Below, one piece after another: positions 2,740 to 38,449 of a stretch of 38,485 nt of DNA; position 1 is the first letter of the stretch, and each line of letters begins with the position of its first letter. The stretch is taken from positions 1-38,485 of IMG/VR virus record IMGVR_UViG_2911215477_000001, one strand, 5' to 3'. Both the position numbers and the translations under genes were made by a program. Source of the stretch: a virus (taxonomy: Duplodnaviria > Heunggongvirae > Uroviricota > Caudoviricetes). Below the pieces are notes generated by a model. It saw only the letters and a program-made list of their open reading frames with translations, did not search any database and had not been told where the DNA came from.

Positions 2740-3283
2740 TTCCAAGTTCCTCAAGTGCCTGGTTGATCGCTCCCTGGATGATGTTCTGGGAGGCAAGGTC
2801 GGTGTCGATGTGACCGTTACGCTTCACGGGCGCGGTCACGGGTTCAGCACGCTCGCGCTTGACCTTGATCGGGTCGGCGTCTGCGATGGTGTTGGTGTCG
2901 GTCGGGACGAAGCCGCGCTGGGAGTTACCCCGGCGATAGCCGATGCCAGCTCGGGCGGCTTCGGACTGTTTCTGGAACTCGGCCAGGGTCTTGTGACGGT
3001 CGCGGAAGTACAGGGCGTGACCCACCTGCATCTCTTCCTTGCGCATCTTGATCGCCGGACAGGTTCGGCTGCAGATGGCGTCCTGGCAGCTCGTGCGCAG
3101 GTTCGGGCGCTTCTCCAGCACCGCTTCGATGGTGTGCAGGCAGACTGCATAGTTCGAACGGCCACTGTACTGGTCACACCAGAAGTAATAGCCGTTGCTG
3201 CCCGAGCGAGATTCGCCCATCGGCAGCTTGTCTTCATTGATGGGGTCGTTCGGGATGTCCCGAAGCTCGATCTTCTCTTCCAC
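2717..3283 (-). CDS. Cys-rich hypothetical protein (possible Zn-binding), 188 aa
   Basis: GTG start with AGGAG SD. Five Cys in the N-terminal half (FWC..AVC..SCQDAICSRTC). Overlaps the ligase start by 23 nt. Confidence 0.75.
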   Translation of the reverse strand: MEEKIELRDIPNDPINEDKLPMGESRSGSNGYYFWCDQYSGRSNYAVCLHTIEAVLEKRPNLRTSCQDAICSRTCPAIKMRKEEMQVGHALYFRDRHKTLAEFQKQSEAARAGIGYRRGNSQRGFVPTDTNTIADADPIKVKRERAEPVTAPVKRNGHIDTDLASQNIIQGAINQALEELGNEHDAQY

Positions 3284-3320
3284 GCTCTTCTCTCCTGTGC
3301 GCGCATTTGCGCTTCACGCA

Positions 3321-3342
3321 ATTATAGTATGTGCATACATAC
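3321..3342 (-). promoter_or_regulatory. Operator-like palindrome 1 plus -10 box
   Basis: GTATGT-gcat-ACATAC at 3327-3342. On the minus strand it is followed immediately by TATAAT (3326-3321). Confidence 0.75.
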
Positions 3343-3344
3343 CA

Positions 3345-4469
3345 TTACAGCGAAATCGTTAGGGGCTTCTCTGGGTAGCGCTTGGCCACCTCCCCCTTCA
3401 GCAGCACGATGTCCACGCCCGTCCTGATCCGCTTAGCGTTCTGGATCGCGGACAGGATCTCCACCGGCTTCGCTTCGCCTGGGTCTTTGTCCTTCGGGAG
3501 CATCGCCACGTAGCACTCAAACCCCATCTTCAGGAGGCTCAGACACGCCTTGGCAGCTGCGAAGGTCGCTTTCGCCTCCCCATCCCAGAGGAAGGTCAGG
3601 CGCTTGACGCCCTTACCCCTGAGCTTGATGAACTGGCCCAGCTGGTCATTCCCTTCGTTGTTGCCCTCGGACAGGTGCATGCCGAAGGTGCCCACGGCCA
3701 GGGTGGTCTCACGCTTGGAGAAGTCCGTGTCCAGGGCGATCTTTGCCCCGATGACGTCAAACGCACCCTCGCAGATGACCACATGGTCTACCCCAGGCAC
3801 GACGTTCCACCCGTTGTAGAGGTAGGAGCCGGTAGACGCGAAGCCAGGCGGGAACAGGTAGCGCTTCTCGTGCTCCCCAGTGCCGTCTCGCCCCTGGAAC
3901 GTGACCAGCTCACCCTCCAGGTCGAAGACCGGGATGATCACGCGCTTGCCGTAGTCCTGCTTCATCTTGCGACCGTCAGGGCTGACGACTTCGAAGGAGC
4001 CCTCTTCACACCAGCGGAGCCCGAAGTATTCAGCCAGGGCTTTATCCACCCCTCGGCGTGCCAGGTATTCGGGAACCTCCTCCATCTCCGCGACAGGCTT
4101 GCTCTCGGGGAGATAGAGGGAATTGAGGTCCGCGATGGTCAGGACTGACGTTCGCTTGGGCCTCCAGCCCTGCTCCTGAGCCAGTTTCCTGAGCGTCAGA
4201 AGCAGCTGGTTGCCAGCTTGGGAGTACAGACCCTTGAGGAAAGTCCATTTGGAGAAGGTCTTCTGGGGGCAACCGCCAGAGAAGCAGTTGCCGACGCCAG
4301 AATCCGCGTTGACGTAGACACGATAGTCGTTCGACCCGCAGAACGGGCATGCCCGGACGTTGAGCTGACGACCTGAACGACCGTAACTGTCACGGTGGGA
4401 CACGCCTTCACGGTCGAGCACCCACTCCATGTCGATCTGGTCGAGCAGTTCTTTTGCCTCCTCCCACAT
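3345..4469 (-). CDS. DNA primase (Zn-finger + TOPRIM)
   Basis: CPFC..NCFSGGC Zn-binding region, TOPRIM ICEGAFD and LWDGE, DKDPGE. Adjacent to the helicase. Confidence 0.88.
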   Translation of the reverse strand: MWEEAKELLDQIDMEWVLDREGVSHRDSYGRSGRQLNVRACPFCGSNDYRVYVNADSGVGNCFSGGCPQKTFSKWTFLKGLYSQAGNQLLLTLRKLAQEQGWRPKRTSVLTIADLNSLYLPESKPVAEMEEVPEYLARRGVDKALAEYFGLRWCEEGSFEVVSPDGRKMKQDYGKRVIIPVFDLEGELVTFQGRDGTGEHEKRYLFPPGFASTGSYLYNGWNVVPGVDHVVICEGAFDVIGAKIALDTDFSKRETTLAVGTFGMHLSEGNNEGNDQLGQFIKLRGKGVKRLTFLWDGEAKATFAAAKACLSLLKMGFECYVAMLPKDKDPGEAKPVEILSAIQNAKRIRTGVDIVLLKGEVAKRYPEKPLTISL

Positions 4470-4474
4470 GACGC

Positions 4475-5824
4475 CTATGCCTCGATTTCGATGATGGACT
4501 CGATCATTCGTGCCTGTTCAAGGTTCGTCTTGACCCGGACGATGAAGTTGCCCTTCTGGTTACGGGACGCGGCGAAGTAGAGCTTTGCCTCGTTGTTTGC
4601 CTTGTCCTCGTCGCTACTGTTGATGGAGATCAGCAAGTCCACAGTTCGGACCTTGTTGATGTCTTCAGCGACGTGCTCCATCTTGCTGACCGTGGACTTG
4701 AAGCCCTCACGGTTGGTCTGGGTCGCAGACAGAAGCGCGCAGTTGAACTCGTAGGAGATGGCACGCAGGTCGATGTAGATCATGCGGCTGTTCTCGCGCA
4801 TCTCCGACGACATCTGATCCGGACGCATCAGGTCGGCGTAGTCCACCACCACCATGTCGTAGTGATTGCCCTTTGCGGCTTCCCGGTGAAGCAGACGACG
4901 GAGGTCGCCAGGGCTGAAGCTGCCCGTGGGGAAGTCGAACAAGGAGAACTTGCCGGCCTTAGCAGACGCTGCCTTTACCTTGTCGCGAACGGCACCCAGA
5001 GCGATCTGGAGATCCTTCATCGCGGTCTTGGCGATGTTCGCGTCCATACGATCCGCGATGATGCGAGCGGCCACTTCCAGCGAGACGTACAAGACGTTGT
5101 AGCCGGCGAGACAGGCATTGACCGCGAACGCGATCAGCGACATGGACTTGCCCGCTTTCGCAGCGCCCATGATCACGCTCAGCTCCTTGCGACCCCATCC
5201 CTTGTTGTAGAGAACACGGTCCAGCTCCTTGAAGCCGGTGGTGATCCCGTCATAGGTGATGCGACCCGCCAGAAGCTCCTTGCGGTATTCCGCACGCCCC
5301 TCGATCGTTTCGAAGAAGTCGATCTTGGAGTTGTCCTGGTTCTCGCCCACCATCAAGGCTTGCTTGATGGCCTTTTCGATGGCCGGGAAGTCCCGCTTAT
5401 CGACCAGCTCTGCAGACTTCAGGATGGCCTCGGTCATCGCAGAGTGACGAGCGAACTCGGCCACGCGGTCGATGGTGAAGTCCTTGTCGTCCAGCTCGAC
5501 TGCGTACAGCTGACGCAGCGCCTGCTTCATGTCCTCAACGAGGTCGCCACGGATGGTCTTGTTCTTGACCGCATCCGTGAAGAGCATCACGAACGCCGTC
5601 TTGGACGGGATCATCTTGTACTTGTTGAAGTAGTCGAGAGCCAGGCTCACGATCTGACCGAGGCTTTCGCTGGTCATGTAGCGCGGCTGGACGAGCCCTT
5701 CGGTGCGCTGGTTGAAGTCCGTGTCGCGAAGCACCCAGGCAGCGATCTGTTCCTGGAAGTTCTCGTCGAACTCATAGGTAACGCCCTCTTCGGTCGCTAC
5801 CACCTCTTCTTCGACCGCCGACAT
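4475..5824 (-). CDS. DnaB/gp41-like SF4 replicative helicase
   Basis: Walker A GAAKAGKS, SLEVA, Walker B VVDYADL, ATQTNR, AEDINK. Confidence 0.92.
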   Translation of the reverse strand: MSAVEEEVVATEEGVTYEFDENFQEQIAAWVLRDTDFNQRTEGLVQPRYMTSESLGQIVSLALDYFNKYKMIPSKTAFVMLFTDAVKNKTIRGDLVEDMKQALRQLYAVELDDKDFTIDRVAEFARHSAMTEAILKSAELVDKRDFPAIEKAIKQALMVGENQDNSKIDFFETIEGRAEYRKELLAGRITYDGITTGFKELDRVLYNKGWGRKELSVIMGAAKAGKSMSLIAFAVNACLAGYNVLYVSLEVAARIIADRMDANIAKTAMKDLQIALGAVRDKVKAASAKAGKFSLFDFPTGSFSPGDLRRLLHREAAKGNHYDMVVVDYADLMRPDQMSSEMRENSRMIYIDLRAISYEFNCALLSATQTNREGFKSTVSKMEHVAEDINKVRTVDLLISINSSDEDKANNEAKLYFAASRNQKGNFIVRVKTNLEQARMIESIIEIEA

Positions 5825-6136
5825 TTAAGCCACCTCGGCAACGGTGATCTCTTCGAGGGCGTGCTTGAACAGCAGGCGCTTGACGGCACCGTTGTTGGTG
5901 GAGATCAGGATGGTGTAGCGATCAACCTCCAGGACGTAGCCGTTCAGGACGACATCAGCGCCCAGCACGAATTCCAGCTCGGTCTCGGACTCGCGCATCT
6001 CCTGCAGCCACTGGTCATGGCTCCAGGGCTTCGGCTGGGGCGGGAGGACGATCTTGGTCGGCGGGGTTACTTCGGGACGGCGGGCCTTGCCGTTCAGGTG
6101 GAGGGTCTTGCGACGGGGAAAGTTGTGATCCTTCAT
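5825..6136 (-). CDS. hfq: Hfq-like (Sm-fold) RNA chaperone with basic, Pro-rich N-terminal extension, 103 aa
   Basis: SHDQWLQEMR..EFVL..VVLNGYVLEVDRYTILI..LLFKHALEEI aligns by eye with the Hfq core (LQDPFLNALR..IYL..IKLQGQIESFDQFVILL..VYKHAISTV). ATG at 6136. Confidence 0.8.
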   Translation of the reverse strand: MKDHNFPRRKTLHLNGKARRPEVTPPTKIVLPPQPKPWSHDQWLQEMRESETELEFVLGADVVLNGYVLEVDRYTILISTNNGAVKRLLFKHALEEITVAEVA

Positions 6137-6153
6137 TCTCTTCTCTACTGCGT

Positions 6154-6177
6154 ATGTATGTCGATACATACATTGTA
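6154..6177 (-). promoter_or_regulatory. Operator-like palindrome 2 plus -10 box (hfq-like promoter)
   Basis: ATGTATGT-cgat-ACATACAT (6154-6173, perfect 8-bp arms, core 6156-6171). On the minus strand TACAAT directly precedes the core. Confidence 0.8.
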
Positions 6178-6189
6178 GCGAGGAAAAAG

Positions 6190-6882
6190 TTACGCGATCA
6201 GTTCAGCGGGAAGCAGCTTCTCGGCAGTCGCTTGGGACAGCACTCCCTGGTCGATCAGACGCAGGGCGACCATCGAGCTGCCCTTGGCACGGATCATCTT
6301 GCAGAGCCATTCGTCGAACGCGCCCTTCCACGGGGCAGTCGAGTCGGCCATGAGGGTCGGGGCGGTGAAGTGCAGCGCTCGGATGGGGAGTTCCTCCTTC
6401 CAGCGCATTGCGATGAAGCCGATCAGGGGCAGGACGCCGGGACGGGCCTTGCCGTAAAGCTGACGGACGTTGGGGAGCCTGCTCCACCCGCGATCCACTG
6501 CCTCGTTGATCCCGAGACGGACGAACGTGTCATAGGGCATCCCGAGAGCGTCAGCGGCCTGTCGTGCCCCGAATGCGTCTTTCATCTGCTGCTCTTTTAT
6601 AAGAGACGTGAACAGCTTCGACACAGCGATAGGGGCGCGATAGATGCCGGTGTACTTCTCCTGCGACTCGACGTAGACCTTGTTGCAGAGCTTCCCAAAC
6701 AAGCGCGTGCGCTTGACGGGGTGCATGCCCCTGTATTCCCACCAGCAGGCTTTCGCAAGCTTGCGCTCGCGCTCACAGATCGCGTCAAAGTCGTTTGGGA
6801 ACGAGCGCATCAGCGCTAGATCCATGTCCCTGGCTTCCATGTCGAAGCCAGGGAACTCGATGGTATGTGTGATGGTCGCCAT
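6190..6882 (-). CDS. Conserved phage hypothetical protein, about 230 aa
   Basis: Long ORF. The WWEYRGMHPVKRTRLF motif recalls a protein of SSU5/pHCM2-like elements (from memory). Start set to MATITH (6882) because the upstream ATG lies in the promoter region. Confidence 0.7.
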   Translation of the reverse strand: MATITHTIEFPGFDMEARDMDLALMRSFPNDFDAICERERKLAKACWWEYRGMHPVKRTRLFGKLCNKVYVESQEKYTGIYRAPIAVSKLFTSLIKEQQMKDAFGARQAADALGMPYDTFVRLGINEAVDRGWSRLPNVRQLYGKARPGVLPLIGFIAMRWKEELPIRALHFTAPTLMADSTAPWKGAFDEWLCKMIRAKGSSMVALRLIDQGVLSQATAEKLLPAELIA

Positions 6883-6884
6883 AG

Positions 6885-6927
6885 TTAGTGCTTTGTCTCT
6901 GAGCACTAATTATATGCGCTCACATAC
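6885..6927 (-). promoter_or_regulatory. Operator-like palindrome 3, TATAAT box and downstream 8-bp hairpin
   Basis: ATATGC-gctc-ACATAC at 6912-6927 overlaps a minus-strand TATAAT. Inverted repeat TTAGTGCT (6885-6892) / AGCACTAA (6902-6909). Confidence 0.7.
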
Positions 6928-7677: not shown

Positions 7678-7731
7678 GTTTGTCCTTCCTTGGTTGTGAA
7701 AAAGGGCGTCCGTCCTAGACACCCTTGGGGT

Positions 7732-8919
7732 TTAGTGATTCTTGGTGGTGAAGAGCGTCGTTGGTATCCCGGCAAACTCGCTCTTGTCCCGGTAGTAATA
7801 CTTGCCACCCACCACAGCGAAGTTGGTGATCGGGAAGTATTCGATGACCGTGGCCTTCGTCAGCGTGTCGATGTGTGCCAGGGCGAAGCCGTTGTGCCAC
7901 TGCTCACCGTTGCAGTAGCTCGCGGAGCGCTTGTGACCGCTGCCTAGCTGATGCCATTCGTATGCACCGTAGATCGGGGAGAACATCGGCCACACTTCAT
8001 GCTTGTGGTGATGACCGTTGACGCCGGGCAGACCCATGTGGCGCGCATGCGGAAAGTGATGTGCGAGGAAGGCGTCCCAATAGATGCGGTAGTTGTTCTT
8101 CACTTCCTTGGTCGTGTCCGACTTCGTGAACGCCGTCATGTCGGCCTGGGCCACGTAGTTCATTTCGAACTCTTCCAGACCCAGCAGCTTGCTGATCGTC
8201 ATGCCGTGGAGGTCGGAAAGGACCGCACGCAGGGCCGGCGTAGCATCAGCCAGGTGACGCAGGAGGCGGTGCTCGTGGTTGCCTTCGATCAGGTCCATCT
8301 GCGTGCCTGGGCAGGCTTCACGGATGGGAGCGAAGATCTTGGTGTGGGCGAACTTGATGCGACCCACCACGTCCCACTCACGCGGATCCACGCCGTACTT
8401 GCCGAACTCGGGCAGATCGAAGATGTCGCCCACGAAGCTCACCACGTCGGGCTGCACTCGCTTGGCGGTGTCGATGAGGACGCGCAGGAAGAACGGGTCA
8501 ATCTCGATGTCGTGGAGGTCCGAACACAGCAGGATGGTCTTGAAGCGAGCCTTGTTGTCGCGGGTGTACTTGTCGCCCCACTCCCGGCGCTCCTCGTTCA
8601 TGCGCTTGTAGTGGTCAACCGAGGCGTGCTTGGCGATGGCCTTCTCCATCGCACCGACCTGACGTGAGCCGGTGATGCCCGCCTGGCGCTTGAACTCGTG
8701 GAAGGTGCCGAAGTGCATCGTCCAGACGGACTCGGCATAGCGTCCGTGGACGCGGTAGTAGTTGCGGGTGATGAACCGTTCGGGGTCCGCTTCCGCCATC
8801 GCACGAATGTCTGCGATGCAGTCTTCGGCAGTGCCATCCTTCAGCTTGGGGATGATGGTTTCAGAGAGTGGGGCTTCCTTGCCCCGTGCAGCCTTCACTG
8901 GCTTCTTACTCGCTTTCAC
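7732..8919 (-). CDS. Calcineurin-like metallophosphoesterase with N-terminal helical module
   Basis: SDLH, GDIFD, GNHE and GHHH metal motifs. The N-terminal YAESVWTMHFGTFHEFKRQAG resembles the HNH-associated repeat (FGSW..AG). GTG at 8919 overlaps the o-spanin TGA. Confidence 0.82.
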   Translation of the reverse strand: MKASKKPVKAARGKEAPLSETIIPKLKDGTAEDCIADIRAMAEADPERFITRNYYRVHGRYAESVWTMHFGTFHEFKRQAGITGSRQVGAMEKAIAKHASVDHYKRMNEERREWGDKYTRDNKARFKTILLCSDLHDIEIDPFFLRVLIDTAKRVQPDVVSFVGDIFDLPEFGKYGVDPREWDVVGRIKFAHTKIFAPIREACPGTQMDLIEGNHEHRLLRHLADATPALRAVLSDLHGMTISKLLGLEEFEMNYVAQADMTAFTKSDTTKEVKNNYRIYWDAFLAHHFPHARHMGLPGVNGHHHKHEVWPMFSPIYGAYEWHQLGSGHKRSASYCNGEQWHNGFALAHIDTLTKATVIEYFPITNFAVVGGKYYYRDKSEFAGIPTTLFTTKNH

Positions 8920-9188
8920 TTGCCGATTCCTTGTTTTCTGAGCTGTTCCGTCAGCCCATGGTGGCGGTCCTTGCACTCCCAGTAGAGGTGCTGGACTTGT
9001 TTGTGGTTGGCTTGAATGGCTTCACGTTCACCGGATTGAAGCTCCGGCAGCTCTTCAGGGCAGTCCTCAAGGTATTTCGCGTTGAGAAAAATCTGCCCTC
9101 TTGTTTCCGAGGTTCCAGAGGCGCAGCTCGTCAGCATCAAACACAGGCTGATCCACGCTGCGCTCAGAAAGAGCCGGTATGGGTTCAT
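8916..9188 (-). CDS. Outer-membrane spanin (Rz1-like lipoprotein)
   Basis: Signal peptide with lipobox LTS-C and a short Pro/Cys-containing mature part. Overlaps the 3' end of the i-spanin in another frame. Confidence 0.85.
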   Translation of the reverse strand: MNPYRLFLSAAWISLCLMLTSCASGTSETRGQIFLNAKYLEDCPEELPELQSGEREAIQANHKQVQHLYWECKDRHHGLTEQLRKQGIGK

Positions 9189-9507
9189 GGGTGTCGTCCT
9201 TCGGCGGATTCCGTGCCTTGGGTTCAGTCACGGGGTATCCGGGCTCCTGTGCCCGGCGCTTGTTGTAGAAATCGACAACGGCGGTGTCAGTCCAGGAGAA
9301 GAAGCCGTCCCTGGCTACATCCTTCCCTGTTTGCTCCTCCTGGACTGACATGGCCGCTTGGGCGTTGTCTGCCGTTTCCTTGCTCACCGCAGCGGACTGC
9401 TGGGACTTCTCAATGGCGTAGCCACGCTCAGTCCAGGTGTGGCCTCCGTAGAAGCACAGACCCGACCAGGCCACGACGAGCAAACCAATGAGAAGTCCCT
9501 GCTTCAT
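9067..9507 (-). CDS. Inner-membrane spanin (Rz-like)
   Basis: N-terminal TM helix (MKQGLLIGLLVVAWSGLCFYGG), then a helical periplasmic domain. ATG overlaps the endolysin TGA (ATGA). Confidence 0.8.
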   Translation of the reverse strand: MKQGLLIGLLVVAWSGLCFYGGHTWTERGYAIEKSQQSAAVSKETADNAQAAMSVQEEQTGKDVARDGFFSWTDTAVVDFYNKRRAQEPGYPVTEPKARNPPKDDTHEPIPALSERSVDQPVFDADELRLWNLGNKRADFSQREIP

Positions 9508-10729: not shown

Positions 10730-10736
10730 CGCTCAG

Positions 10737-10784
10737 TCCCTTGTAGCCAGTGTGTATGTATGCGCTTACGTATTCTACAAGGGA
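10737..10784 (-). promoter_or_regulatory. Lysis-cassette control region: operator-like palindrome 4, -10 TAGAAT and flanking 10-bp inverted repeat
   Basis: GTATGC-gctt-ACGTAT at 10758-10773. Perfect IR TCCCTTGTAG (10737-10746) / CTACAAGGGA (10775-10784). The downstream arm on the mRNA contains the SD of the holin candidate. Confidence 0.75.
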
Positions 10785-10793
10785 CGGAAAGGG

Positions 10794-11524: not shown

Positions 11525-11547
11525 ATTATACGTATGCAGATACTTAC
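11525..11547 (-). promoter_or_regulatory. Operator-like palindrome 5 plus -10 box
   Basis: GTATGC-agat-ACTTAC at 11532-11547. Minus-strand TATAAT at 11530-11525. Confidence 0.7.
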
Positions 11548-15100: not shown

Positions 15101-17472
15101 GCCAGCTTTGCCACATAGGGCTGCGGGCAGCCAGCCGGGACGTCCGGATCGGTCGAAGCGACGACCGTGAAGCCCATGCGGTCGTAGCGGGTTTCGAACG
15201 TCGGGTTCGGGATCAGGTCTTCACCCGCGTTCAAGGCCGACTTGACCGCGTAGGTCAGCGTATCCAGGTTCGTCTGGAGGCTGCTGATGTCACCGATGCC
15301 CAGCGTGACCGCACCAGTGCGACCGGCAACGCTCGTCACCGTCTGCTGGTTGTCGATGCGATCCCAGCCATTCTTGTCATTGGCAACGATCATGTCGCCA
15401 ATCTTGTAGCTCACCGAGCTGACGGTGCCCGCCACGCTGATGATGTAGAAGTCACCCTTCTTCGGGGTGGCCGGCAGCGTGCCCTTGGAAGCGTCCCACG
15501 AGCCCATGTAGACCAGGGTGCCCGTCGATGCAGCCTGCATCGTTTCCGCCCAGTGGCGAGCGGAGAACTTGCCCGGCTGGACTTCGGTGTTGCGGGGAGC
15601 GTCAGCCCACTGCTGAGCCAGGTCGCGAGCGGTCTCGGCAGCCGTCTTCGCACCGCCTGCAGCCGACGAGGATGCGGCAGCGCTCGTTTCCGAGGACTTC
15701 GCGTTGGTCTCGCTCGTTTTGGCGTTGGTCTCGGAGGTCTTTGCGTTCGTAGCCGAGGTGGCTGCAGCCGTAGCCGATCCAGCAGCTGCCGTCTTCGATG
15801 CAGCAGCATTGGTTTCGGACGTAGCAGCGTTCGTTTCCGAGGTCTTGGAGTTGGTCTCGGAGGTCTTCGCCTTGCTCTGGGAGTCGGCAGCAGCAGCTGC
15901 GCTGTCAGAGGCAGCCTGGCTGTCCGTGATGTCCTCGATGTAGAGCGCCTGCAGCTCGATGGTCGCGCCCGTGCCAGCCGTCGCAATGGCCTGACAGGTG
16001 GCATAGGGAGCCGTGCTGCCGCTGGTGAACTGGAACGAGACCGTCTGCCACGCGCCGTCCTTGGGGAGGTTCGCGTTCGCAGGGATGTTGGCCATGACGG
16101 AGGTCGCCATAGCGTCGTTCACGGTCAGGATCGACAGACCCAGGGTCGAAGTGCCCGCAATGGATCGAGCGACCGCAGTTGCACGATAGGTGCGACCGGA
16201 CGCATTGCGCAGGTAGCCCTTCGGACGCGGATACACCGGGCTGGTTGCCGTGGACTTGAAGACCGTGCCAGAGCCCGCTTCAACGACGAAGTTGGCATCC
16301 GGGATGTCAGTCGATCCCGGACCCACCGAGTTGGTCAGGGTGAAGAACTTACCCTTCTGCGAGAACTCGCGGGGCATGGCGAACATTGCACCGGCAGTCG
16401 CAGCGGTCGCACTGTTGGCAGCGTTCGTTTCACTGGTCGCAGCAGCGGTCTTCGACGCAGCAGCAGCGTTTTCCGATGCCTTGGCATTGGTTTCGCTGGT
16501 CTTTGCATTCGTCTCGGAGGTTGCAGCAGCCGTTTTGCTGGCAGCAGCAGCATTCTCGGAAGCCTTCGCGTTGGTTTCCGAGGTGCCGGCAGCGGTCTTG
16601 CTCGCAGCAGCAGCCGTCGCGGAGCCAGCAGCGTTCGTTTCGCTGGTTTTCGCGTTCGTTTCGGAGGTCTTGGCGTTGGTTTCCGACGTCTTTGCGTTCG
16701 TTTCGGAGGTCTTCGCCTTCCCTTCCGACGTGGAAGCATTGGTGGCCGACGTAGCAGCAGCCGTAGCGGAGCCGGCAGCAGCGGTCTTGCTGGAAGCAGC
16801 GTTCGTTTCGCTCGTGGCCGCAGCCGTCTTGCTCGCAGCAGCGTTGGTTTCCGAGGTCTTGGAGTTGGACTCGGAGATCTTTGCGTTCTGCTCGCTCGTG
16901 CGGGCAGCTGCAGCCGAAGCCGCCGCATTGGTCTCGCTGGTCTTGGCAGCGTCACGCGATGCGTTCGACTTGGCCAGGTTGTCGCGAGTCTGGGCAATCG
17001 CACCGCCCAGCTCATCAGCCATCTTGGTGCCGCTGTCCAGGATCTGTGGCAGCGAGTAGACCTCCATCGCCACGCCGTCGAAGCTGGTGATCGTGACCTT
17101 GGTCGGATACACCGGGTCATCGGATGCCGGCTTCGTCGCCCAATCGGTCAGCTGACGCTCGCGCAGGAGCGACTTGCTGATGAGCTGGAGCTGGGCAGCA
17201 ACAAGCTCGGCACCGGGAAGCACCGAGAAGTTGCGGATGACCGCGTAGGTCGTGGTAGCCAGGCTCGCGCCCTTGTAAGGGGACGCGAGCACCAGGGTAT
17301 CGGCACCAGTGACGTCCGCGATCTCGTAGAACGCAGCGCCGTCGATGGTGAAGAGATCACCAGGGCGGATCGGGTTGCCAACATTCCAGAACGTCGAGGT
17401 TCCGGAGATGTTGGCCGAGTCCTTGGTTACTTTGACAGTGCCGGCTCGATACCAGCGGCTGTAGTCCGTCAT
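12100..17472 (-). CDS. Side tail fibre, 1790 aa, with CBM-like domains and a C-terminal intramolecular chaperone (peptidase S74-like)
   Basis: N-terminal anchor (WYRAGTVKV..ISGTSTFW), SETNA repeats, two NL(I/V)xxxxFE jelly-roll starts, a PSAHTH motif, and C-terminal SDARLK..GFFAQE. Confidence 0.92.
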   Translation of the reverse strand: MTDYSRWYRAGTVKVTKDSANISGTSTFWNVGNPIRPGDLFTIDGAAFYEIADVTGADTLVLASPYKGASLATTTYAVIRNFSVLPGAELVAAQLQLISKSLLRERQLTDWATKPASDDPVYPTKVTITSFDGVAMEVYSLPQILDSGTKMADELGGAIAQTRDNLAKSNASRDAAKTSETNAAASAAAARTSEQNAKISESNSKTSETNAAASKTAAATSETNAASSKTAAAGSATAAATSATNASTSEGKAKTSETNAKTSETNAKTSETNAKTSETNAAGSATAAAASKTAAGTSETNAKASENAAAASKTAAATSETNAKTSETNAKASENAAAASKTAAATSETNAANSATAATAGAMFAMPREFSQKGKFFTLTNSVGPGSTDIPDANFVVEAGSGTVFKSTATSPVYPRPKGYLRNASGRTYRATAVARSIAGTSTLGLSILTVNDAMATSVMANIPANANLPKDGAWQTVSFQFTSGSTAPYATCQAIATAGTGATIELQALYIEDITDSQAASDSAAAAADSQSKAKTSETNSKTSETNAATSETNAAASKTAAAGSATAAATSATNAKTSETNAKTSETNAKSSETSAAASSSAAGGAKTAAETARDLAQQWADAPRNTEVQPGKFSARHWAETMQAASTGTLVYMGSWDASKGTLPATPKKGDFYIISVAGTVSSVSYKIGDMIVANDKNGWDRIDNQQTVTSVAGRTGAVTLGIGDISSLQTNLDTLTYAVKSALNAGEDLIPNPTFETRYDRMGFTVVASTDPDVPAGCPQPYVAKLAVRDHTPNFDPIPVQPGDVIEMTAVVASSVGTPGTNAFNLYVRQSQFSPWAPGGAGTYTYTNVKSQPISAGWVKVVGRYTVPANGSVRWILPFLQINQNSPDYGSIWYATDWHVRNLTSVAALESSKLDSAAFTWANLANKPTTFTPSAHTHAISEVTNLQRSLDLINFTAGRNLVSDGNFEKKLWDLTQSGAQGRVTYVTDSRSGSTAIQIAPGSGDVSFGMPVQTIPVVLGRTYRISCYYKTSADYNGASNNSKLRLGDSGGGLLIAPTFSSNKTSWTQVTGDYTVQPGVTGLQLSVNANQTVGTLTVDDVSIIDVTDDLGLLPLLATKLGKTGNQTYDGVTNTAAAWAALPMGYSSYMGNSSTIGIAGGAPNDNYGYFHKIANRDVSGGWAGLWIQAGSSDSFVGGTSDGSQFATWNKLWTSANFDPTTKLDKTATAASATSIAVVDTRDVVDAPGDFGAKQVFASFKRIASVNNPPVNNGGTYAHILTMMGWDIGGSGGYASQLSFGDGLAIRKGTNATTWGPWRNVWHDGNFNPNSKANLVGPTFSDIVYFKPVNGTTGLSRFMPFGTDGVSLDAVNSDASKYAPIAINGTDISLQAQNKITVTKSVVSTHVWSGPGQGVGAMAYQAGGSYGGGYAISDGDNDIALYSVGGALNISFGAKRGALISRVTVAPDGTTTVNGTVIANNASLRASGWNGTATDGVVYFGNANSYIFKQGGQFSFYNEQAGFTASLAAGGTIWTSALITPLDKNVGGVMMKEITFNGNGGGNGIYPGNGDNCSITANNLAIKSWNGIGFAPTISGQAVPLGEYSHWFDVRNGHFNMRGDLVARGSATIWGEASGNTLKARNGYVNSDQGHLVLGNNGTAGTIYMRPNGPYNGAGEFKVQSNGDAYCSAWVYAPNFKINSDARLKRFAEKLNPRQELEKIKKLIPRSYLKDGHWEFGFFAQEMEDHYPTMVTSGDGPAGPDTLTLSVAELLAPLVAAVQMLDKRLTDGGL
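15630..15925 (-). repeat. Coding tandem repeat block 2 (same units as block 1)
   Basis: Second run of KTSETN/AAAS units after an intervening globular domain of about 150 aa. Boundaries are approximate. Confidence 0.8.
16390..16965 (-). repeat. Coding tandem repeat block 1 (AKTSETN / AAASKTA units)
   Basis: Many imperfect 7-aa and 14-aa units in the fibre translation (Stf-like coiled coil). Boundaries are approximate. Confidence 0.85.
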
Positions 17473-17499
17473 TCGATCATCCTTGATCTATGGAGGTAT

Positions 17500-17519
17500 G
17501 TATGTGCCTACATAGTATA
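17500..17519 (-). promoter_or_regulatory. Operator-like palindrome 6 overlapping -10 TATACT (tail-fibre promoter)
   Basis: GTATGT-gcct-ACATAG at 17500-17515, preceded by GTAT. Minus-strand TATACT overlaps the site by 2 nt. Confidence 0.75.
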
Positions 17520-28303: not shown

Positions 28304-28321
28304 TCACATCATCCTTGATGT

Positions 28322-28992: not shown

Positions 28993-29002
28993 TTCTTCAA
29001 TC

Positions 29003-29035
29003 CATGAAGAGAGGCGGGGAGGTTTCCCTCCCCGC
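29003..29035 (-). terminator. Weak intrinsic terminator after the tail tube gene
   Basis: GCGGGGAGG-GAAA-CCTCCCCGC 9-bp stem (29014-29035) followed by CTCTCTT, a poor U-tail. Confidence 0.6.
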
Positions 29036-29640: not shown

Positions 29641-29665
29641 CTATGTATCTACATACATACTACCA
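29641..29665 (-). promoter_or_regulatory. Operator-like palindrome 7 plus extended -10 (tail-tube promoter)
   Basis: CTATGT-atct-ACATAC-ATAC at 29641-29660. The minus strand reads TG-G-TAGTAT directly before the core. Confidence 0.75.
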
Positions 29666-32784: not shown

Positions 32785-32799
32785 GCTTTGTCCTTGTGC

Positions 32800-32857: not shown

Positions 32858-33766
32858 TTAGACGTTGGTGATGCCCTTCAGGCGAGCCATCGAGCGCGTG
32901 GACTTGAGGGCCAGGCCCACATACCACTTCAGGCGGTAGCGCCAGGCGTCCTTGTTCTGGACGGTGCCGAGAGCTTCCAGGCGGATGCCCGCAGCTTCGC
33001 CACCGTGCAGACCGTGCAGGCCGTCGTCTTCGTTCAGACGCAGCGCGTACACGCTGGTCGTGGCATCGGCGGAACCCTGGGCTTCCGTGCCGATGTAGTC
33101 GTTGACGATGATCGGCATGCCGTTGTGGCACAGCATGGGGCGACCGAAGTTCGGCAGGATCAGCTCGGACGGCGAGGTGCCACCAGCTGCGCGGAGCAGC
33201 GCACGGTATGCGCGGACGGTGCCCGAACGCATCACGAGGCAGTCAGCGCCGTTCGGCACCATGTCCACCAGCTCGTCGAGCATGGAGAGGGTCAGCGCGG
33301 AACCGTTGGCACCCACGACCTGCACCTGGCTCGAACCCAGACCGTTGGAGATCGCGGCGATACCATCGAATTCCTTCGAATGGACCGAGCGGTCGCCGTT
33401 GATGAGGGTCTTCTGGAACTTGGTGCGCAGACCCTTCGCCTTCGCGGCGATCTGCAGGGCCACCTGGTCGTTCACATCGCTCTCGGACGAGGCGAGGAAC
33501 TTGTCGATGTCCACGTCATGCGCCAGGACGCGGAGCGCCGTGGTGACTTCGGTGAACTTCGCAGCACCTTCCGGCACTTCCTCGTTCGGATCCAGGAACT
33601 CGGCTTCGACCACACCGTTCTCACGGTTGTAGACGTAAGCCTTACCATCGGTTCGGGTGAACGGCAGCACGGCGAACAGGTCGTCGCGGTCGATCACCTC
33701 TTCGATCACGCCACGGACGAGATCGTTGTTCGAAAGCTTGTCAGCTTCCACTTTCAGCAACGGCAT
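32858..33766 (-). CDS. Major capsid protein (HK97 fold), 302 aa
   Basis: Follows the scaffold gene, has a strong SD and its own terminator. MPLLKVEADKLSNN..DDLFAVLPF..YVYNRE and RYRLKWY motifs. Confidence 0.92.
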   Translation of the reverse strand: MPLLKVEADKLSNNDLVRGVIEEVIDRDDLFAVLPFTRTDGKAYVYNRENGVVEAEFLDPNEEVPEGAAKFTEVTTALRVLAHDVDIDKFLASSESDVNDQVALQIAAKAKGLRTKFQKTLINGDRSVHSKEFDGIAAISNGLGSSQVQVVGANGSALTLSMLDELVDMVPNGADCLVMRSGTVRAYRALLRAAGGTSPSELILPNFGRPMLCHNGMPIIVNDYIGTEAQGSADATTSVYALRLNEDDGLHGLHGGEAAGIRLEALGTVQNKDAWRYRLKWYVGLALKSTRSMARLKGITNV

Positions 33767-33791
33767 TTAAGACACTCCTTGTCTTGTTTCG

Positions 33792-33811
33792 GTATGTATG
33801 TGGTTACGTAC
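33792..33811 (-). promoter_or_regulatory. Operator-like palindrome 8 (upstream of the capsid gene)
   Basis: GTAT-GTATGT-ggtt-ACGTAC at 33792-33811. The -10 box is weak here. Confidence 0.7.
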
Positions 33812-33859
33812 TTGTATTGCTACAACCGAACCCGCCAGTTCCCTTTGGCGTGAACTCAG

Positions 33860-34678
33860 TTAGAAGCCGCTCGACGGGAGCTTGATGGCACCCGCGTTGA
33901 CGGCAGCTCGGATGCGATCACGGCCCGAGCCCACGTCCACATCAGCCTTGGCACCGTCCTGGTTCTTGGAACCGGAGCCGGCGCGCATCTGCGAGCGGAG
34001 CATGTGGTCACGGTCGGGATCGCCATTGACGATCTTCTCCAGCGCCTTTTCGAATTGCAGCGGCGAACCGTTGCCATCGACCAGGACGGAGCGACCAGCG
34101 GCACCGACCGGCTTGTCATAGCCGACGACGTTGCCGTCCTTCACTTCGAAATGTCCGCCGTACACCGTGCGAGCCTTGGCCGGGGTCAGCGTGAGCTGAT
34201 CGCGGACGAAGGACGAGTCACCGAACGAACGGCCAATCGTCAGCTCGATGATCTGGGCACGCGAGGCTTCCAGTTCCGCCGACATCGAGGTGAGCTTCGT
34301 GCTCGTCTCGTTGGTCAGCGCTTCCAGCGCCTTGTTGTGCTCGTCGATCATCTGGGTCTTGACGCTTTCGAACTCACCGCGCTTTTCAGCTTCGGTGCGT
34401 TGGCGTTCGGCTTCCAGGCGGTCGCTTTCTGCCTTGTCCTTGAGCAGCTGCTTCACTGCCTCGGGATCAATGCCTTCGAACTTCTTCTGGTGTTCGGTCA
34501 GGGACTCTTCCAACTCGCGGATGCGGGTCTTCTTGTCCATGACTTCCTTCAGGAGCTTGGCTTCGGCGTCGGACGGGGTGTTCTTGCCACCCTCATTGCC
34601 CGGACCACCTGCGCCCTTGCCCTGATCTTCCTTACCAGCCTCGTCCATCAGGCGGCGATTGCGAAACTTGTTGAACAT
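33860..34678 (-). CDS. Capsid scaffolding protein
   Basis: Charged coiled-coil protein between portal and capsid genes. ATG at 34678 with AAGGA SD. Confidence 0.82.
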   Translation of the reverse strand: MFNKFRNRRLMDEAGKEDQGKGAGGPGNEGGKNTPSDAEAKLLKEVMDKKTRIRELEESLTEHQKKFEGIDPEAVKQLLKDKAESDRLEAERQRTEAEKRGEFESVKTQMIDEHNKALEALTNETSTKLTSMSAELEASRAQIIELTIGRSFGDSSFVRDQLTLTPAKARTVYGGHFEVKDGNVVGYDKPVGAAGRSVLVDGNGSPLQFEKALEKIVNGDPDRDHMLRSQMRAGSGSKNQDGAKADVDVGSGRDRIRAAVNAGAIKLPSSGF

Positions 34679-34700
34679 TCCGTGTTTTCCTTGATGCCAT

Positions 34701-34732
34701 TCACTTGGCAATCTCTTGGCCAGTCACTTGGC
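34701..34732. repeat. Three near-tandem 9-mers TC(A/T)CTTGGC
   Basis: TCACTTGGC 34701-34709, TCTCTTGGC 34712-34720, TCACTTGGC 34724-34732. Confidence 0.7.
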
Positions 34733-34734
34733 CG

Positions 34735-36336
34735 TTAGTTGTTCCCTGGAGTGGGCTTGCCGCCGCTGTTGTCTTTCGACGAGACGGCACCCTGGTTCGA
34801 ATCCTTCGAACCGTCCTGGGCTGGTGTATGTATGTTCATACCTACACCATTAAGCGAAGTGTAGGCACTGTCGTCCCAGGAATCAATAGCCTTCTGCAAT
34901 TCCTGTTTCTTCTCTTCTGCCAGCATCGGCCAGATCTTCTCCACGATGCCGGTCATCAGTGCGCGACGCACCTCGATGGGAGCTGCGAGCAAACTCATGC
35001 CCTGCGCAATCGCCATGTCGTCGGACAGACCGCGCACGTCGAAGCTCGTGCTGTACTTCACCGTGTTGGTTTCGGGATCGAGCAGGCTGGTCTTCTCGCC
35101 GTTCCAGATGCGCACCAGGGTTTCCATGCGGTTGGAGAACTGCTCCATCGCATTGGCCTTGGCCGAGAGCAGCGCGTTCACACGTTCGAAGTCGTATGCC
35201 TTTGCTACGCCCGAGCTGTTGTCGATGCCGACCGAGTTGTCCTGCTTGGTGCGCTCACCGGCAAGACCGACCGTGTGGTAGATCTCGTTGATGATCTGGC
35301 GGATCGCCGTGATGATCAGGGATGCTTGGCGCGGATCGGGGCTGATGTAGGTGGGGGCTGCGCCGTGCTCACCGTCGAACAGAAGCACCTGGGAAGTGCC
35401 CATCTTCATCAGGTTGCGCTTGGCTTCGTCCTCTTCCTTCGCACTGTCTTCCGGCGACAGACCCACGCCCGGCAGCACACCCTGAGCCGGCATGACGAGC
35501 TGGCTGAAGGTCTGGTCGTTGATGATCTGGTCCAGGCACGACAGGTAGTTCGCGGTGCCACGGTCCATGTAGGCGATGTCTTCGATCAGCCCAGGGTTGT
35601 GGTAGCGAGCGTCCGACTCGACGTGATCGGCCTTGATGACCGGCACGACGCCCAGGTTGTGATCGCCCTTATCGACGAACTCGATCTTGTCCCTGACGGT
35701 CTGCTTGAAGACGAACCACTGGGTCTTGGTCCACAGGCGGAAGCGGGACAGCACGCGGCCCGAGCCCGAGAACGGGTTGTCGTCGTCGCGGTAGACCTCT
35801 TCGATCAGGATCCACTCCAGCTGGCCGAAGTCGTCGTAGCCCATGTCCAGGACATGCTTGGGGGTGACGATGTACGAGTAGAGGCGCACCGCACCATTCT
35901 TCTCGTCGGCAATCGACGCGATCTCGGAGTTGCTGCGCTTGTTGTTGTCCACCACGACCCAGACGCGACCATAGATCGACGTCTTGCGGGCGACCTCGCG
36001 TTCGAACTGGGACAGCGTGAGGCCCGTCAGGGTGGCTCGCTCGCGGAAACGCAGCACCTGGTCGGGGACGTCCGGCTTACGCACGGGTGCCACCTTGAAC
36101 AGATACTTGTTCACCAGGTCCACTACCTCGCGGGTGTGGTTGAAGCGGTAGGCGCGCTCCACACGCTTGGCGTAGGTCGTGTCACCCTCTCGCGTGAAGC
36201 GGAAGATGTTCTTCTTGAACCAGGACCGCTCGCTCTTGTAGGTCTCTTCCAAGAACTCCCAGTGTTCCAGCTTCTCCCGGTAGTCCGGGTGACGGCGCTG
36301 GGTGAGCGCCGCCATTTCCTTTGGCTTGTAAGTCAT
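34735..36336 (-). CDS. Portal protein (SPP1 gp6-like), 533 aa
   Basis: Follows terL. HNLGVVPVI, IAYMDR..NYLS and SGVAKAYDF motifs. Confidence 0.9.
   Translation of the reverse strand: MTYKPKEMAALTQRRHPDYREKLEHWEFLEETYKSERSWFKKNIFRFTREGDTTYAKRVERAYRFNHTREVVDLVNKYLFKVAPVRKPDVPDQVLRFRERATLTGLTLSQFEREVARKTSIYGRVWVVVDNNKRSNSEIASIADEKNGAVRLYSYIVTPKHVLDMGYDDFGQLEWILIEEVYRDDDNPFSGSGRVLSRFRLWTKTQWFVFKQTVRDKIEFVDKGDHNLGVVPVIKADHVESDARYHNPGLIEDIAYMDRGTANYLSCLDQIINDQTFSQLVMPAQGVLPGVGLSPEDSAKEEDEAKRNLMKMGTSQVLLFDGEHGAAPTYISPDPRQASLIITAIRQIINEIYHTVGLAGERTKQDNSVGIDNSSGVAKAYDFERVNALLSAKANAMEQFSNRMETLVRIWNGEKTSLLDPETNTVKYSTSFDVRGLSDDMAIAQGMSLLAAPIEVRRALMTGIVEKIWPMLAEEKKQELQKAIDSWDDSAYTSLNGVGMNIHTPAQDGSKDSNQGAVSSKDNSGGKPTPGNN
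34826..34845 (-). promoter_or_regulatory. Operator-like palindrome 9, embedded in the portal 3' coding sequence
   Basis: GTAT-GTATGT-tcat-ACCTAC at 34826-34845, an AT-rich patch within the portal tail. Confidence 0.65.
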
Positions 36337-36354
36337 CAGACGTCCTTGTCTAGT

Positions 36355-36374
36355 GTATGTATATGGTTACATAC
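36355..36374 (-). promoter_or_regulatory. Operator-like palindrome 10 (upstream of portal)
   Basis: GTAT-GTATAT-ggtt-ACATAC at 36355-36374, in the 46-nt terL-portal gap. Confidence 0.7.
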
Positions 36375-36382
36375 ATCTTTGG

Positions 36383-37633
36383 TCAAAAGCTAACACCCAG
36401 GACCGGCGTCTTGCGGGTCGGGAAGTTGTACTCGATGGCGTAGCCGATACCGTCCGCGATGTGCTCCTTGTTGAGCGACTTGTCGATCTCGGTCGTGCCC
36501 TCGCGATACGTCACCTGTTCGAAGGCTTCGATGGTCGCCCTGCACTTCTCGTTGACCTTCAGTCGCACCTGGTTGCTGGCACTGCGGAGCAAGGCGTTCA
36601 CCGAGTTCACGCGGTCCTGCACGAACGGATGCTTCTTGTGATACATGATCCGCTTGAAGCCTCGGCTGCGGAAAATGTCCAGGGCCGATTCACCACGGGC
36701 ATGCGAGCGCGAACCACCTGCCGGGTCAGGGAAGATGGTGATCTGGCTCATGTTGCGCCAGTAGCGCTTCTCCAGCTCGTCGCAGACCTCGGTCACGTTG
36801 GAGTTGAAGAGCACGATCTCATCGACCACCCACAGCTCGCCGTTCGGCTGAGGCTGAAGCACAGCAGCCGACATCGGGGAGATGTTGAAGTCCTGCCCGA
36901 TCCAGATCGGCAGCTTCGGGTTGAATGGGTAGTTGCCCACATGCCGGCTGCGTTCGAACGGGTAGTAGACGCGGCCCGACATGGTTTCGAAGCTCGCCTC
37001 GTACTCCTGACGGAACGTGCGCGGATCCAGGTCGCTGCGTGCCTGCTCGATCTCTCGCATGGGCACGAACGGGGACGCGATGGTCGGGAACTGCCAGCTC
37101 GCCCACTCGGGGTTCTTGCGGTTGCGCTGACGGACGCCCTTGGCGTAGTTCTCGTACAGAAGGTTGTGGGACTTGGGCGTGCCGATGAAGAGCGCCCTGC
37201 CCTCCGTCGTCGCCAGGGTCGGACGGAGCACCTGCTCCCAGACCTCGGTGCGCATATCCTGGTATTCGTCGAGCACCACGAAGTTCAGACCCACACCGCG
37301 CAGGGTGTCAGGTCGGTCGGCACCCTTCAGGGAGATCAGCGCGCCGTTGACCAGGCGCAACTGCAGGAGCGTTTCGTTGTACTTGTCCACCCAATCCGGA
37401 GGCGTGGTCGCCTTCAGATCGTTCCACATGATCTCTCGGGCCATGCCGTAGGTCGGGGCCACATACCAGATCTTGTCGCCGGGATTGGCACGCGCACCTT
37501 CGCGACGAAGCTCGGACAGTGCGAGCGTCGTCTTGCCAAAGCGTCGGCCTGCAACCAGGGTGCGGAAACGCGCAGGATTGCGATACACCTCCATCTGGGC
37601 ACGATGGAGGCGCGTGCGTGCTACCTCGCTCAT
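36383..37633 (-). CDS. terL: Terminase large subunit
   Basis: Walker A AGRRFGKT, Walker B FVVLDEYQD, nuclease GQDFN and HIADGIGY. Confidence 0.95.
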   Translation of the reverse strand: MSEVARTRLHRAQMEVYRNPARFRTLVAGRRFGKTTLALSELRREGARANPGDKIWYVAPTYGMAREIMWNDLKATTPPDWVDKYNETLLQLRLVNGALISLKGADRPDTLRGVGLNFVVLDEYQDMRTEVWEQVLRPTLATTEGRALFIGTPKSHNLLYENYAKGVRQRNRKNPEWASWQFPTIASPFVPMREIEQARSDLDPRTFRQEYEASFETMSGRVYYPFERSRHVGNYPFNPKLPIWIGQDFNISPMSAAVLQPQPNGELWVVDEIVLFNSNVTEVCDELEKRYWRNMSQITIFPDPAGGSRSHARGESALDIFRSRGFKRIMYHKKHPFVQDRVNSVNALLRSASNQVRLKVNEKCRATIEAFEQVTYREGTTEIDKSLNKEHIADGIGYAIEYNFPTRKTPVLGVSF

Positions 37634-38277
37634 TCTGCTTCCTCTTCCTCGGACTCCGTGTCCGGTTCCGGGAAGGACTCAGCTGCGGCTTCGATCTCTT
37701 CGATGGTGGGCGCGGGTGCCTCTTCGTCGGTTTCCTCACCGAACGAGGACGTGCGGTTGCGGAGCGCTGCCTCTTCCTCGGCAGTCATCTCTTCCACGAC
37801 GATCTTGGTCTTCTCGCCCGTGCCGGCGTCCGGGTTGATCTCCAACAGGCAATACAGCTCTTCGCGGGCGAGCTTCAGTGAAGCGACCGATTCGCGCAGG
37901 GCTTTGGCAGTTGCCTGGAGGGACGCAAGCGAATGGCCACCCTCACGGATGACCTTGAACTCGCGACCGAAGGCTTGCAGGAGGTTGAGCTGGATGCCGG
38001 CGAGCTGTTCCTTCGCGTAGATCGAACGGAATGCCATCTTCTCGGCGTATTCGCGCTCCATCGCAGCGATCTTCGCCAGGTTCTCTTCACGAACCTTGTC
38101 CAGCTTCTCGCCGCCCTTGATCTTGGCAGCGGTCATGTGTCGGGAGACGGTTTCGATGCGGATGCCGAACTTTTCAGCCACCTCTTTCTGGGTGTGGCCG
38201 TTGGCATACATCTCTTCGGCCTTCGCCCACTCCTTCGGAGTCAGACGGCGACCGGCGCTTGCAGCTTTTGCACTCAT
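37630..38277 (-). CDS. terS: Terminase small subunit
   Basis: N-terminal HTH (TQKEVAEKFGIRIETVSRH), coiled-coil middle and acidic tail. Overlaps the terL ATG. Confidence 0.85.
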   Translation of the reverse strand: MSAKAASAGRRLTPKEWAKAEEMYANGHTQKEVAEKFGIRIETVSRHMTAAKIKGGEKLDKVREENLAKIAAMEREYAEKMAFRSIYAKEQLAGIQLNLLQAFGREFKVIREGGHSLASLQATAKALRESVASLKLAREELYCLLEINPDAGTGEKTKIVVEEMTAEEEAALRNRTSSFGEETDEEAPAPTIEEIEAAAESFPEPDTESEEEEAE

Positions 38278-38282
38278 TACAA

Positions 38283-38351
38283 CTCCATCCTTGGAGATAT
38301 GAAGACGGGATCTACAGCGCGTCCCATCCTTGGGGGCTGTAGATCCCGTCT
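38283..38351 (-). promoter_or_regulatory. Structured terS leader: two CAAGGATG-loop hairpins, one capping a perfect 16-bp stem
   Basis: AGACGGGATCTACAGC (38303-38318) / GCTGTAGATCCCGTCT (38336-38351) with inner CCCA-AGGA-TGGG. CTCCA-AGGA-TGGAG (38283-38296) covers the SD. Confidence 0.75.
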
Positions 38352-38353
38352 GT

Positions 38354-38437
38354 TAGAAAATCCCGGCTCGGTCCATCGGAGGAGAGAAGAGATGGTCTTT
38401 GGCGACCGCTGCCGGGGTGTCCTTTGTATGTATGTGC
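38354..38437 (-). ncRNA. Candidate leader-derived small RNA of about 85 nt (hairpin plus U-tract, pyrimidine-rich loop)
   Basis: Starts just after TATAAT (38449-38444). Nested stems CCCGGC/GCCGGG, CGGT/ACCG and CCATC/GATGG, loop TCTTCTCTCCTCC, then ATTTTCT. Structure predicted by hand only. Confidence 0.45.
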
Positions 38438-38449
38438 TTACCTATTATA
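38426..38449 (-). promoter_or_regulatory. Operator-like palindrome 11 overlapping TATAAT (head-operon promoter)
   Basis: GTAT-GTATGT-gctt-ACCTAT at 38426-38445. Minus-strand TATAAT at 38449-38444, with GTGAAA 17 bp upstream. Confidence 0.8.

Follow-up and report, generated by a model that had tools for sequence, protein, structure and literature searches.

Late-leader small RNAs (sRNAs), multi-target sRNAs of mobile elements, dispersed operators and read-through hairpins are already known, each separately. Chromosomal multi-target sRNAs such as AbcR1/2, CcsR/cuckoo and RsaE cover Shine-Dalgarno (SD) sequences with CU-rich single strands or loops, and the C1 repressor of P1, a temperate phage of about 100 kb, uses one dispersed palindrome-like operator at tens of promoters. 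In the T4 genes e, soc and I-TevI, the ribosome-binding site (RBS) is hidden in long upstream transcripts but accessible in shorter ones, whose internal promoter begins transcription within the 5' arm. To our knowledge, the known phage sRNAs have one or few targets or act on the host. Here we analyze a 38,485-nucleotide stretch of a virus of the Caudoviricetes (IMG/VR record IMGVR_UViG_2911215477_000001; hereafter the window), which is the left 38 kb of a prophage of about 103 kb (G000:64774-103258 of a 4.99-Mb chromosome, 64.7% GC). The leader of its terminase gene terS is predicted to yield an sRNA whose CU-rich seed matches the RBSs of a set of the phage's own non-virion genes, and seed and RBSs co-vary across related phages.

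StxS, or lambda 6S, the PR'-tR' product, acts in trans with Hfq and represses one phage mRNA (stx1B); phage propagation does not need it, and its main effect is to activate host rpoS (Sy, Lan and Tree 2020, PMC7547250). SviR of the Vibrio cholerae PLE is a mobile-element sRNA with several targets (bioRxiv 10.1101/2022.04.08.487710). VpdS of VP882, PreS of lambda, P22 sar and lambda OOP are further phage sRNAs, of which VpdS has several targets and sar and OOP are single-target cis-antisense RNAs (PMC12197685).

As with StxS, the RNA proposed here is short and comes from a late promoter, with a terminator ahead of the late operon (28-36 of 92 relative loci; weak in this phage). Unlike StxS, its promoter carries a genome-wide operator, it is predicted to target early RBSs of the same phage, at least a dozen of them, which co-vary with the seed, and an Rfam scan of the window returned no match. 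A tRNA scan of the window was likewise empty. No Q-type antiterminator was recognized by a Q-like match among the regulators scanned, which represent only part of the genes. The RNA resembles SviR, VpdS, PreS, sar and OOP as a mobile-element sRNA predicted to control translation of the element's own genes; it differs from them in its position in a terminase leader, in the set of RBSs that co-evolves with it across the family and in the Hfq homologue encoded by the same genome. Its CU-rich anti-SD seed and its many predicted mRNAs recall AbcR1/2, CcsR/cuckoo and RsaE, whereas it is phage-borne, unmatched in Rfam and would draw its specificity from phage-specific seed flanks. In the literature covered, from which most subscription papers were absent, we found no description of this leader RNA, none of a phage-encoded Hfq for this family, and no paper in which a seed co-varies with the RBSs of one class of genes in the same phage.

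The terS leader is predicted to encode an sRNA complementary to non-virion RBSs

The leader and the sites and genes that its seed brings into view are the following.

38444..38472, minus strand: terS leader promoter, sigma70-type, GTGAAA-17-TATAAT, 10/12 consensus, predicted start near 38437
38354..38437, minus strand: candidate leader sRNA of about 82 nucleotides (nt), from folding, with nested stems and a weak AUUUUCU tail
38378..38393, minus strand: pyrimidine seed; 12-16 phage genes have the complementary AG-rich motif at their RBS
38303..38351, minus strand: 16-bp hairpin with an apical CAAGGAUG loop, possibly a CsrA site or a processing stem
3285..3296, minus strand: AG-rich RBS of the Cys-rich gene, 12-nt seed match
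2717..3283, minus strand: Cys-rich gene of 188 amino acids (aa) between primase and ligase, PHROG 4558/5055
6137..6146, minus strand: AG-rich RBS of the hfq-like gene, 10-nt seed match
1..1323, plus strand: integrase, RBS just left of the window with a 9-nt seed match

The folding z-score is -5.25 for the 181-nt leader and only -2.3 for its 88-nt 5' part. The seed is accessible in the predicted fold, and its pairing would extend over 12 nt at the RBS of the Cys-rich gene and over 10 nt at that of hfq. The motif complementary to the seed, AGAGAAGAGA, was counted 13 times in the prophage, where most copies lie directly ahead of a start codon, and not once in the 4.89-Mb host. Seed matches of at least 8 nt were found at 16 of 108 non-late phage RBSs, 0 of 24 late RBSs and 11 of 2679 host RBSs; at a threshold of at least 10 nt, the counts are 12/108, 0/24 and 1/2679. 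In 2000 shuffles of the leader, matches averaged 0.13 and never exceeded 4, versus 12 observed. The seed-matched genes include those for the integrase, the XRE-like, hfq-like and Cys-rich products, cobS/cobT-like and sbcCD-like proteins, dUTPase and a 5'-3' exonuclease, and an excisionase-like gene overlooked by the gene caller used likewise carries the AG motif. For the Cys-rich protein, no fold emerged from an Atlas search.

A second, inverted copy of the AG motif lies outside the window near attR (L008:6331-6420, equal to G000:167331-167420, minus strand) and is complementary to 13 phage RBSs. It is single-stranded within a stem and is followed by a hairpin and a weak U tail; possibly, it belongs to a second sRNA upstream of the excisionase-like promoter. 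A promoter for this putative RNA was not found, and a 28-codon plus-strand open reading frame behind the inverted motif was rejected because nothing supported it. Between this copy and attR (L008:6440-6560) lie several CTGTAGCCC copies in both orientations, which resemble integrase arm sites.

Seed and cognate RBSs co-vary among relatives

The comparison covered 92 loci with a related terminase, with cognate tests on 20 genomes and a scan of 62 gene families; the genomes are related to one another, and start codons were taken from a simple gene caller. A strong terminator lies 630-900 nt upstream of terL in 36 of the 92 loci, with CTCC adjoining or inside it in 28, and a promoter-CU seed-terminator unit stands before terS in 28/92. 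CTCC was present at 17 of 20 terS-leader terminators versus 58 of 445 other terminators of the same genomes (p 5e-12). The terminator stem co-varies, with two-sided changes at 5 of 6 pairs, and a covariance model built from 22 members found further terS-leader members at the same position.

For each RNA, matches were better at the cognate RBSs than at those of other phages (20 genomes, 7-mers; p<0.0002 without this genome), and the sense, coding, further-upstream, reversed and shuffled controls were negative. At the level of orthologues, again leaving this genome out, co-variation was detected for the Cys-rich gene (p 0.0006, n=12), the hfq-like gene (p 0.03, n=11), the cobS-like gene (p 0.0008), the XRE-like gene (0.004) and a 151-aa gene (0.0014), and the outcome was similar once close kin had been removed. 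The Cys-rich and hfq tests are independent ones, because a first-pass annotation of the window had specified both genes, from this genome alone, as silenced by RNA from the terS (head-operon) promoter. Both pairings thus hold up in the relatives, with silencing as their presumed effect, and the two proposed targets have grown to about 16 genes. The seeds themselves vary between phages, and the cobS RBS tracks them (this phage, Magnetospirillum, Chitinibacter and G223).

The opposite sign was obtained for two virion genes:

33860-34678: scaffold gene
32858-33766: capsid gene

Their RBSs pair more poorly with their own leader than with foreign ones (p 0.001 and 0.08, respectively; without this genome), which suggests that these virion RBSs are under selection to avoid the leader RNA.

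In G206 and G220 (L077-L082, L300-L305), another RBS-proximal word, AGGTAAACA, precedes 8-9 genes and is unmatched by the terS-leader RNA of these phages. It may be read by another RNA or protein.

The phage encodes an Hfq-like protein

5825..6136, minus strand: Hfq-like gene abutting dnaB, 103-aa product

The product matches the Pfam Hfq family (PF17209) at 34 bits, above the cut-off, and its structural model (pLDDT 85; Foldseek root-mean-square deviation to Hfq 1-2.6 Å) predicts a real Hfq fold, an Sm fold with an N-terminal helix and five strands. The proximal face of Hfq binds U-rich terminator ends (PMC5207318). Its residues (Q8, D40-F42, K56-H57) are kept here as H for Q8, DRY and FKH, and H40, D72 and K91 are invariant across 18 phage homologues. 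In an alignment with host Hfq, the distal Y25 and the rim arginine patch are not kept, and a basic N-terminal arm is found instead.

The hfq-like gene lies before dnaB in most relatives. The first-pass annotation had tied the leader sRNA to this protein; an obligatory tie is contradicted by G204, which has the unit and a strong seed match, yet in which the hfq-like gene was not found, and by several genomes that carry the gene without the leader unit. Strict co-occurrence of the two was rejected on these grounds. It is plausible that the phage protein acts with the leader RNA, and this distribution indicates that it would not be required.

A single palindromic box is dispersed over the prophage

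The terS promoter carries a 20-bp palindrome, GTATGTA-N6-TACATAC, which recurs along the window (10 boxes at 21-32 bits and one weak; no strand assigned).

3323..3342: box
6152..6171: box
6908..6927: weak box, about 10 bits
10754..10773: box
11528..11547: box
17496..17515: box
29641..29660: box
33792..33811: box, -10 not found
34826..34845: box inside the portal gene, -10 not found
36355..36374: box
38426..38445: operator-like box covering the -10 and start site of the terS leader promoter

The whole prophage holds 39 boxes, 36 of them at ≥15 bits; none reached 15 bits in 5 shuffles, and none in the 4.89 Mb of the host. Boxes precede early, late, integrase and regulator genes alike and lie either over the start site or within the promoter spacer. 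Since two of them (33792 and 34826) have no recognisable -10 and most -35 elements match at 2-3 of 6 positions, the 11 boxes cannot be equated with 11 established promoters. When the window was scanned with generic promoter and terminator models, there was no excess over shuffles. Relatives have cognate boxes of their own, AAGTCA-N4-TGACTT in most and TAAGTA-N6-TACTTA in enterobacterial members. A repressor site is the simplest reading of the box. The single operator regulon proposed earlier is thus borne out as one dispersed operator, at 39 sites prophage-wide; an 11-promoter regulon as a unit was rejected. The arrangement differs from that of P1 C1 in the site itself and in the presence of boxes before virion genes as well; for its binder we have a candidate.

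L005:2390-2671, minus strand: winged-helix-type gene, 93 aa, PHROG 900, just upstream of the terS promoter
L008:91-774, minus strand: sigma-factor-like gene, PHROG 351 (E 2e-7), downstream of the cobS-like gene, a candidate for transcriptional timing

The winged-helix gene is present in 25 of 25 near-complete genomes, the XRE-like gene in 20 and the sigma-like gene in 18; as the only candidate common to all 25, the winged-helix gene is the best candidate for the box binder. Besides the winged-helix, sigma-factor-like and XRE-like proteins, the prophage encodes a further helix-turn-helix protein. Because several transcriptional regulators are encoded, timing need not be set after transcription, as had been argued from the joint derepression of all promoters, and the terminator before terS in many relatives implies a transcriptional step.

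Hairpins at the holin and virion RBSs

Two hairpins are predicted in read-through RNA:

10736..10785, minus strand: 11-bp inverted repeat around a box, hiding the RBS of a holin candidate (GTG 10729) only in read-through RNA
6885..6909, minus strand: 8-bp read-through hairpin before a 230-aa gene that opens the replication block

Opening the holin RBS costs a predicted 18.5 kcal/mol with the upstream RNA and 6.2 without it. The corresponding energies are 10.0 and 3.2 kcal/mol for hfq and 9.8 and 2.8 kcal/mol for the 230-aa gene, and prophage RBSs have a median of 7.9 and a 90th percentile of 13.2 kcal/mol. Only the holin hairpin stands out, because the other values are within the normal range. 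Thus, of the earlier proposal that read-through hairpins gate both the holin and entry into replication, the holin part stands, by precedent only. Unlike at T4 gene e, soc and I-TevI, the internal promoter here carries an operator, and the gated gene is a holin candidate.

Hairpins with a GGA loop, the form of CsrA/RsmA targets, lie along the virion genes.

38283..38296, minus strand: GGA-loop hairpin over the terS SD
36338..36351, minus strand: CANGGANG hairpin over the portal RBS
34794..34812, minus strand: GGA-loop hairpin of 8 bp, internal to the portal gene and about 120 nt ahead of the scaffold start
33769..33785, minus strand: GGA-loop hairpin over the major capsid RBS
28994..29010, minus strand: GGA-loop hairpin over the RBS of a 122-aa tail gene
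28306..28321, minus strand: GGA-loop hairpin over the tape-measure RBS
17475..17488, minus strand: GGA-loop hairpin over the tail-fibre RBS

Such hairpins were found at 5 of 19 GGA-containing late RBSs, versus 25 of 1626 in the host (p 1e-5) and 2 of 64 at other phage genes (p 0.006). Stem-borne CANGGANG occurs at 4 of the 19 late RBSs (terS, portal, tape measure and fibre) versus 1 of 1626 host RBSs, and this form fits the CsrA consensus, ANGGA in apical loops (PMC5207318). As in described CsrA/RsmA targets, CAAGGA(U/C)G loops lie over the SD of these four genes, and the host has CsrA (a single csrA gene; there is also a single hfq gene); unlike those targets, the hairpins here are predicted from sequence, and they are not conserved across the phage family. 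Enrichment is confined to late RBSs: over the whole prophage, 77 GGA hairpins were observed and 76.7 expected. Overall, late RBSs are not more structured than early ones (p 0.11).

Late GGA enrichment was detected in 3 of 34 genomes, this one (p 0.003), a Morganella element (0.02) and, marginally, one more (0.03). Among relatives, G243 (p 0.02) and partly G241 have the hairpins, which also cover the terS SD in Morganella/Xenorhabdus-type members; they are absent in Acinetobacter, Stenotrophomonas and Methylophaga-type members, although Acinetobacter and Methylophaga-type hosts do have csrA. Among the hosts tested, those from the beta- and alphaproteobacteria had no csrA. On this distribution, we rejected Rsm gating as a trait of the whole family. 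What remains of the proposed Rsm-type control of virion mRNAs is the late-RBS enrichment in this genome: the hairpins, as predicted CsrA sites, are at most a lineage-level layer, and they could simply be weak SD-occluding hairpins. In the enterobacterial terS leaders (L022, L025 and L026), there is no CU-seed terminator unit, and a GGA-loop hairpin hides the terS SD and GTG start.

The prophage and its family

The prophage is integrated at tRNA-Lys, with an integrase and a duplicated tRNA-Lys segment at both ends. Gene order in the window runs from the integrase on the plus strand to ligase, primase, helicase, PhoH, lysis, tail, head and terminase genes on the minus strand. Capsid, portal, terminase and replication gene order place it in the SSU5/AB-like phage-plasmid group of about 110 kb: the capsid shares 61% identity with its counterparts in Acinetobacter phage-plasmids and matched 954 plasmid records, and there is synteny with Stenotrophomonas phage BUCTxx99. 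The plasmid prophage state of that group is not seen here, the element being chromosomal. Protein searches found a single close phage (L359, 96% DNA identity), and 200 related host genomes contained no terminase relative.

Three further features were noted. A bidirectional terminator-like hairpin lies between the convergent integrase and ligase genes (window 1329-1353); two small overlapping genes behind the endolysin resemble an i-spanin/o-spanin pair (window 8916-9507); and the first tail-fibre gene has 7-residue (21-nt) repeats, which are ordinary for fibres (window 15600-16950).

Discussion

We give an even chance to the reading, the most likely of those considered, that the leader RNA is a Cro-like RNA repressor of regulator, integration and early mRNAs after induction. 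One DNA-binding protein on the roughly 39 boxes would keep early and late promoters off in the lysogen. Upon induction, the terS promoter would first yield a short leader RNA, whose CU-rich seed would pair in trans over the SD region of the co-evolved non-virion mRNAs and repress them; the proposed targets are integrase, excisionase-like, XRE-like, hfq-like, Cys-rich, cobS/cobT-like, sbcCD-like, dUTPase and other mRNAs. The virion RBSs are unmatched, hence virion mRNAs would be spared. In this way the RNA would work as a lambda Cro made of RNA, lowering the regulator, integration and early genes once the lytic programme is under way. Host or phage Hfq probably assists it, because the residues for U-tail binding on the proximal face are retained in the phage protein. 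The holin hairpin would be a separate device of the T4 gene e type, the GGA hairpins an extra confined to this lineage and possibly read by host CsrA, and early/late timing is probably transcriptional too.

Several observations weigh against the Cro-like reading. The unit is present without a cognate 8-mer match in G206, G221, G226 and G253, one held-out partial genome (G209) ranked last in the cognate test, and the unit did not turn up in the enterobacterial and Stenotrophomonas members or in many of the alphaproteobacterial ones. The number of families scanned (62), the kinship among the genomes and our own simple start calls also temper the p values. In this genome, the seed contrast between late and non-late RBSs is modest (p 0.03). 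The leader promoter is present, and in place of the strong terminator of the relatives there is a weak tail, without the GC stem and U6-8 tail of the family; the family covariance model fails to find this leader. Therefore, its release as a separate RNA is uncertain, and its homology lies in position and seed.

The same RNA and targets could operate with the opposite timing, the main alternative, which we consider rather unlikely: the promoter would leak or fire in the lysogen and stop at the terminator, as for lambda 6S/StxS, the RNA would be a second lock on stray early transcripts, and late genes would need antitermination or an activator. Near-consensus promoters and strong terminators before terS in many relatives fit this timing, as do the StxS precedent (PMC7547250) and a target set made up mostly of lytic early genes. 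However, the box overlaps the -10/start site in this phage and the -35 element in its relatives, suggesting that the promoter is off in the lysogen, and the integrase and XRE-like genes are among the targets.

It is unlikely that there is no pairing in trans at all, the AG motif being a stereotyped strong RBS or a binding site of the phage Hfq-like protein, the CU stretch part of a cis attenuator, and the match a reflection of general SD complementarity. Most AG-motif genes do stand first behind a box, like a copied cassette; any SD can pair with the CUCC core, there is a second, inverted copy close to attR, and the match is missing in many relatives. However, the cognate-versus-foreign tests cancel generic SD pairing and are still significant with negative controls, virion RBSs avoid the seed match, and the order of motif and box in the leader is unlike that of an inverted cassette.

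That all promoters open together and timing is set only by CsrA on virion mRNAs, by read-through hairpins and by feedback through the sRNA and phage Hfq is very improbable: all these parts are in this genome, CsrA-type hairpins are enriched at its late RBSs and cover the terS SD also in Morganella/Xenorhabdus-type members, and the host has csrA and hfq, but several other regulators are encoded, one of them sigma-like, the boxes show two geometries and some lack a -10, most relatives, CsrA-positive Acinetobacter among them, lack the GGA layer, late RBS structure is overall not higher than early (p 0.11), and the only close relative, L359, with 99% identity in the leader, is too similar for a co-variation test.

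The integrated switch of the first-pass annotation therefore survives in its parts, every one of which is present as a sequence feature, and not as one family-wide system: in a survey of related elements, its layers did not consistently co-occur, the GGA layer being lineage-specific and the phage Hfq and the RNA not strictly paired. We put forward only tentatively, as possible and somewhat doubtful, that the family has a switch of its own, composed of a packaging-leader sRNA, the phage Hfq and a phage-specific RBS "barcode" of early, regulator and integration genes that co-evolves with the seed, which would lower the early programme as a block, with host CsrA gating virion genes in this lineage.

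If the proposed pairing is true, a developmental switch would be built here in a new way, through an RNA seed that evolves together with the RBSs of an entire class of genes in the same phage, and the widespread phage Hfq homologues would gain a candidate partner. The leader finding offers a handle on regulation in this family, including the SSU5/AB-type phage-plasmids.

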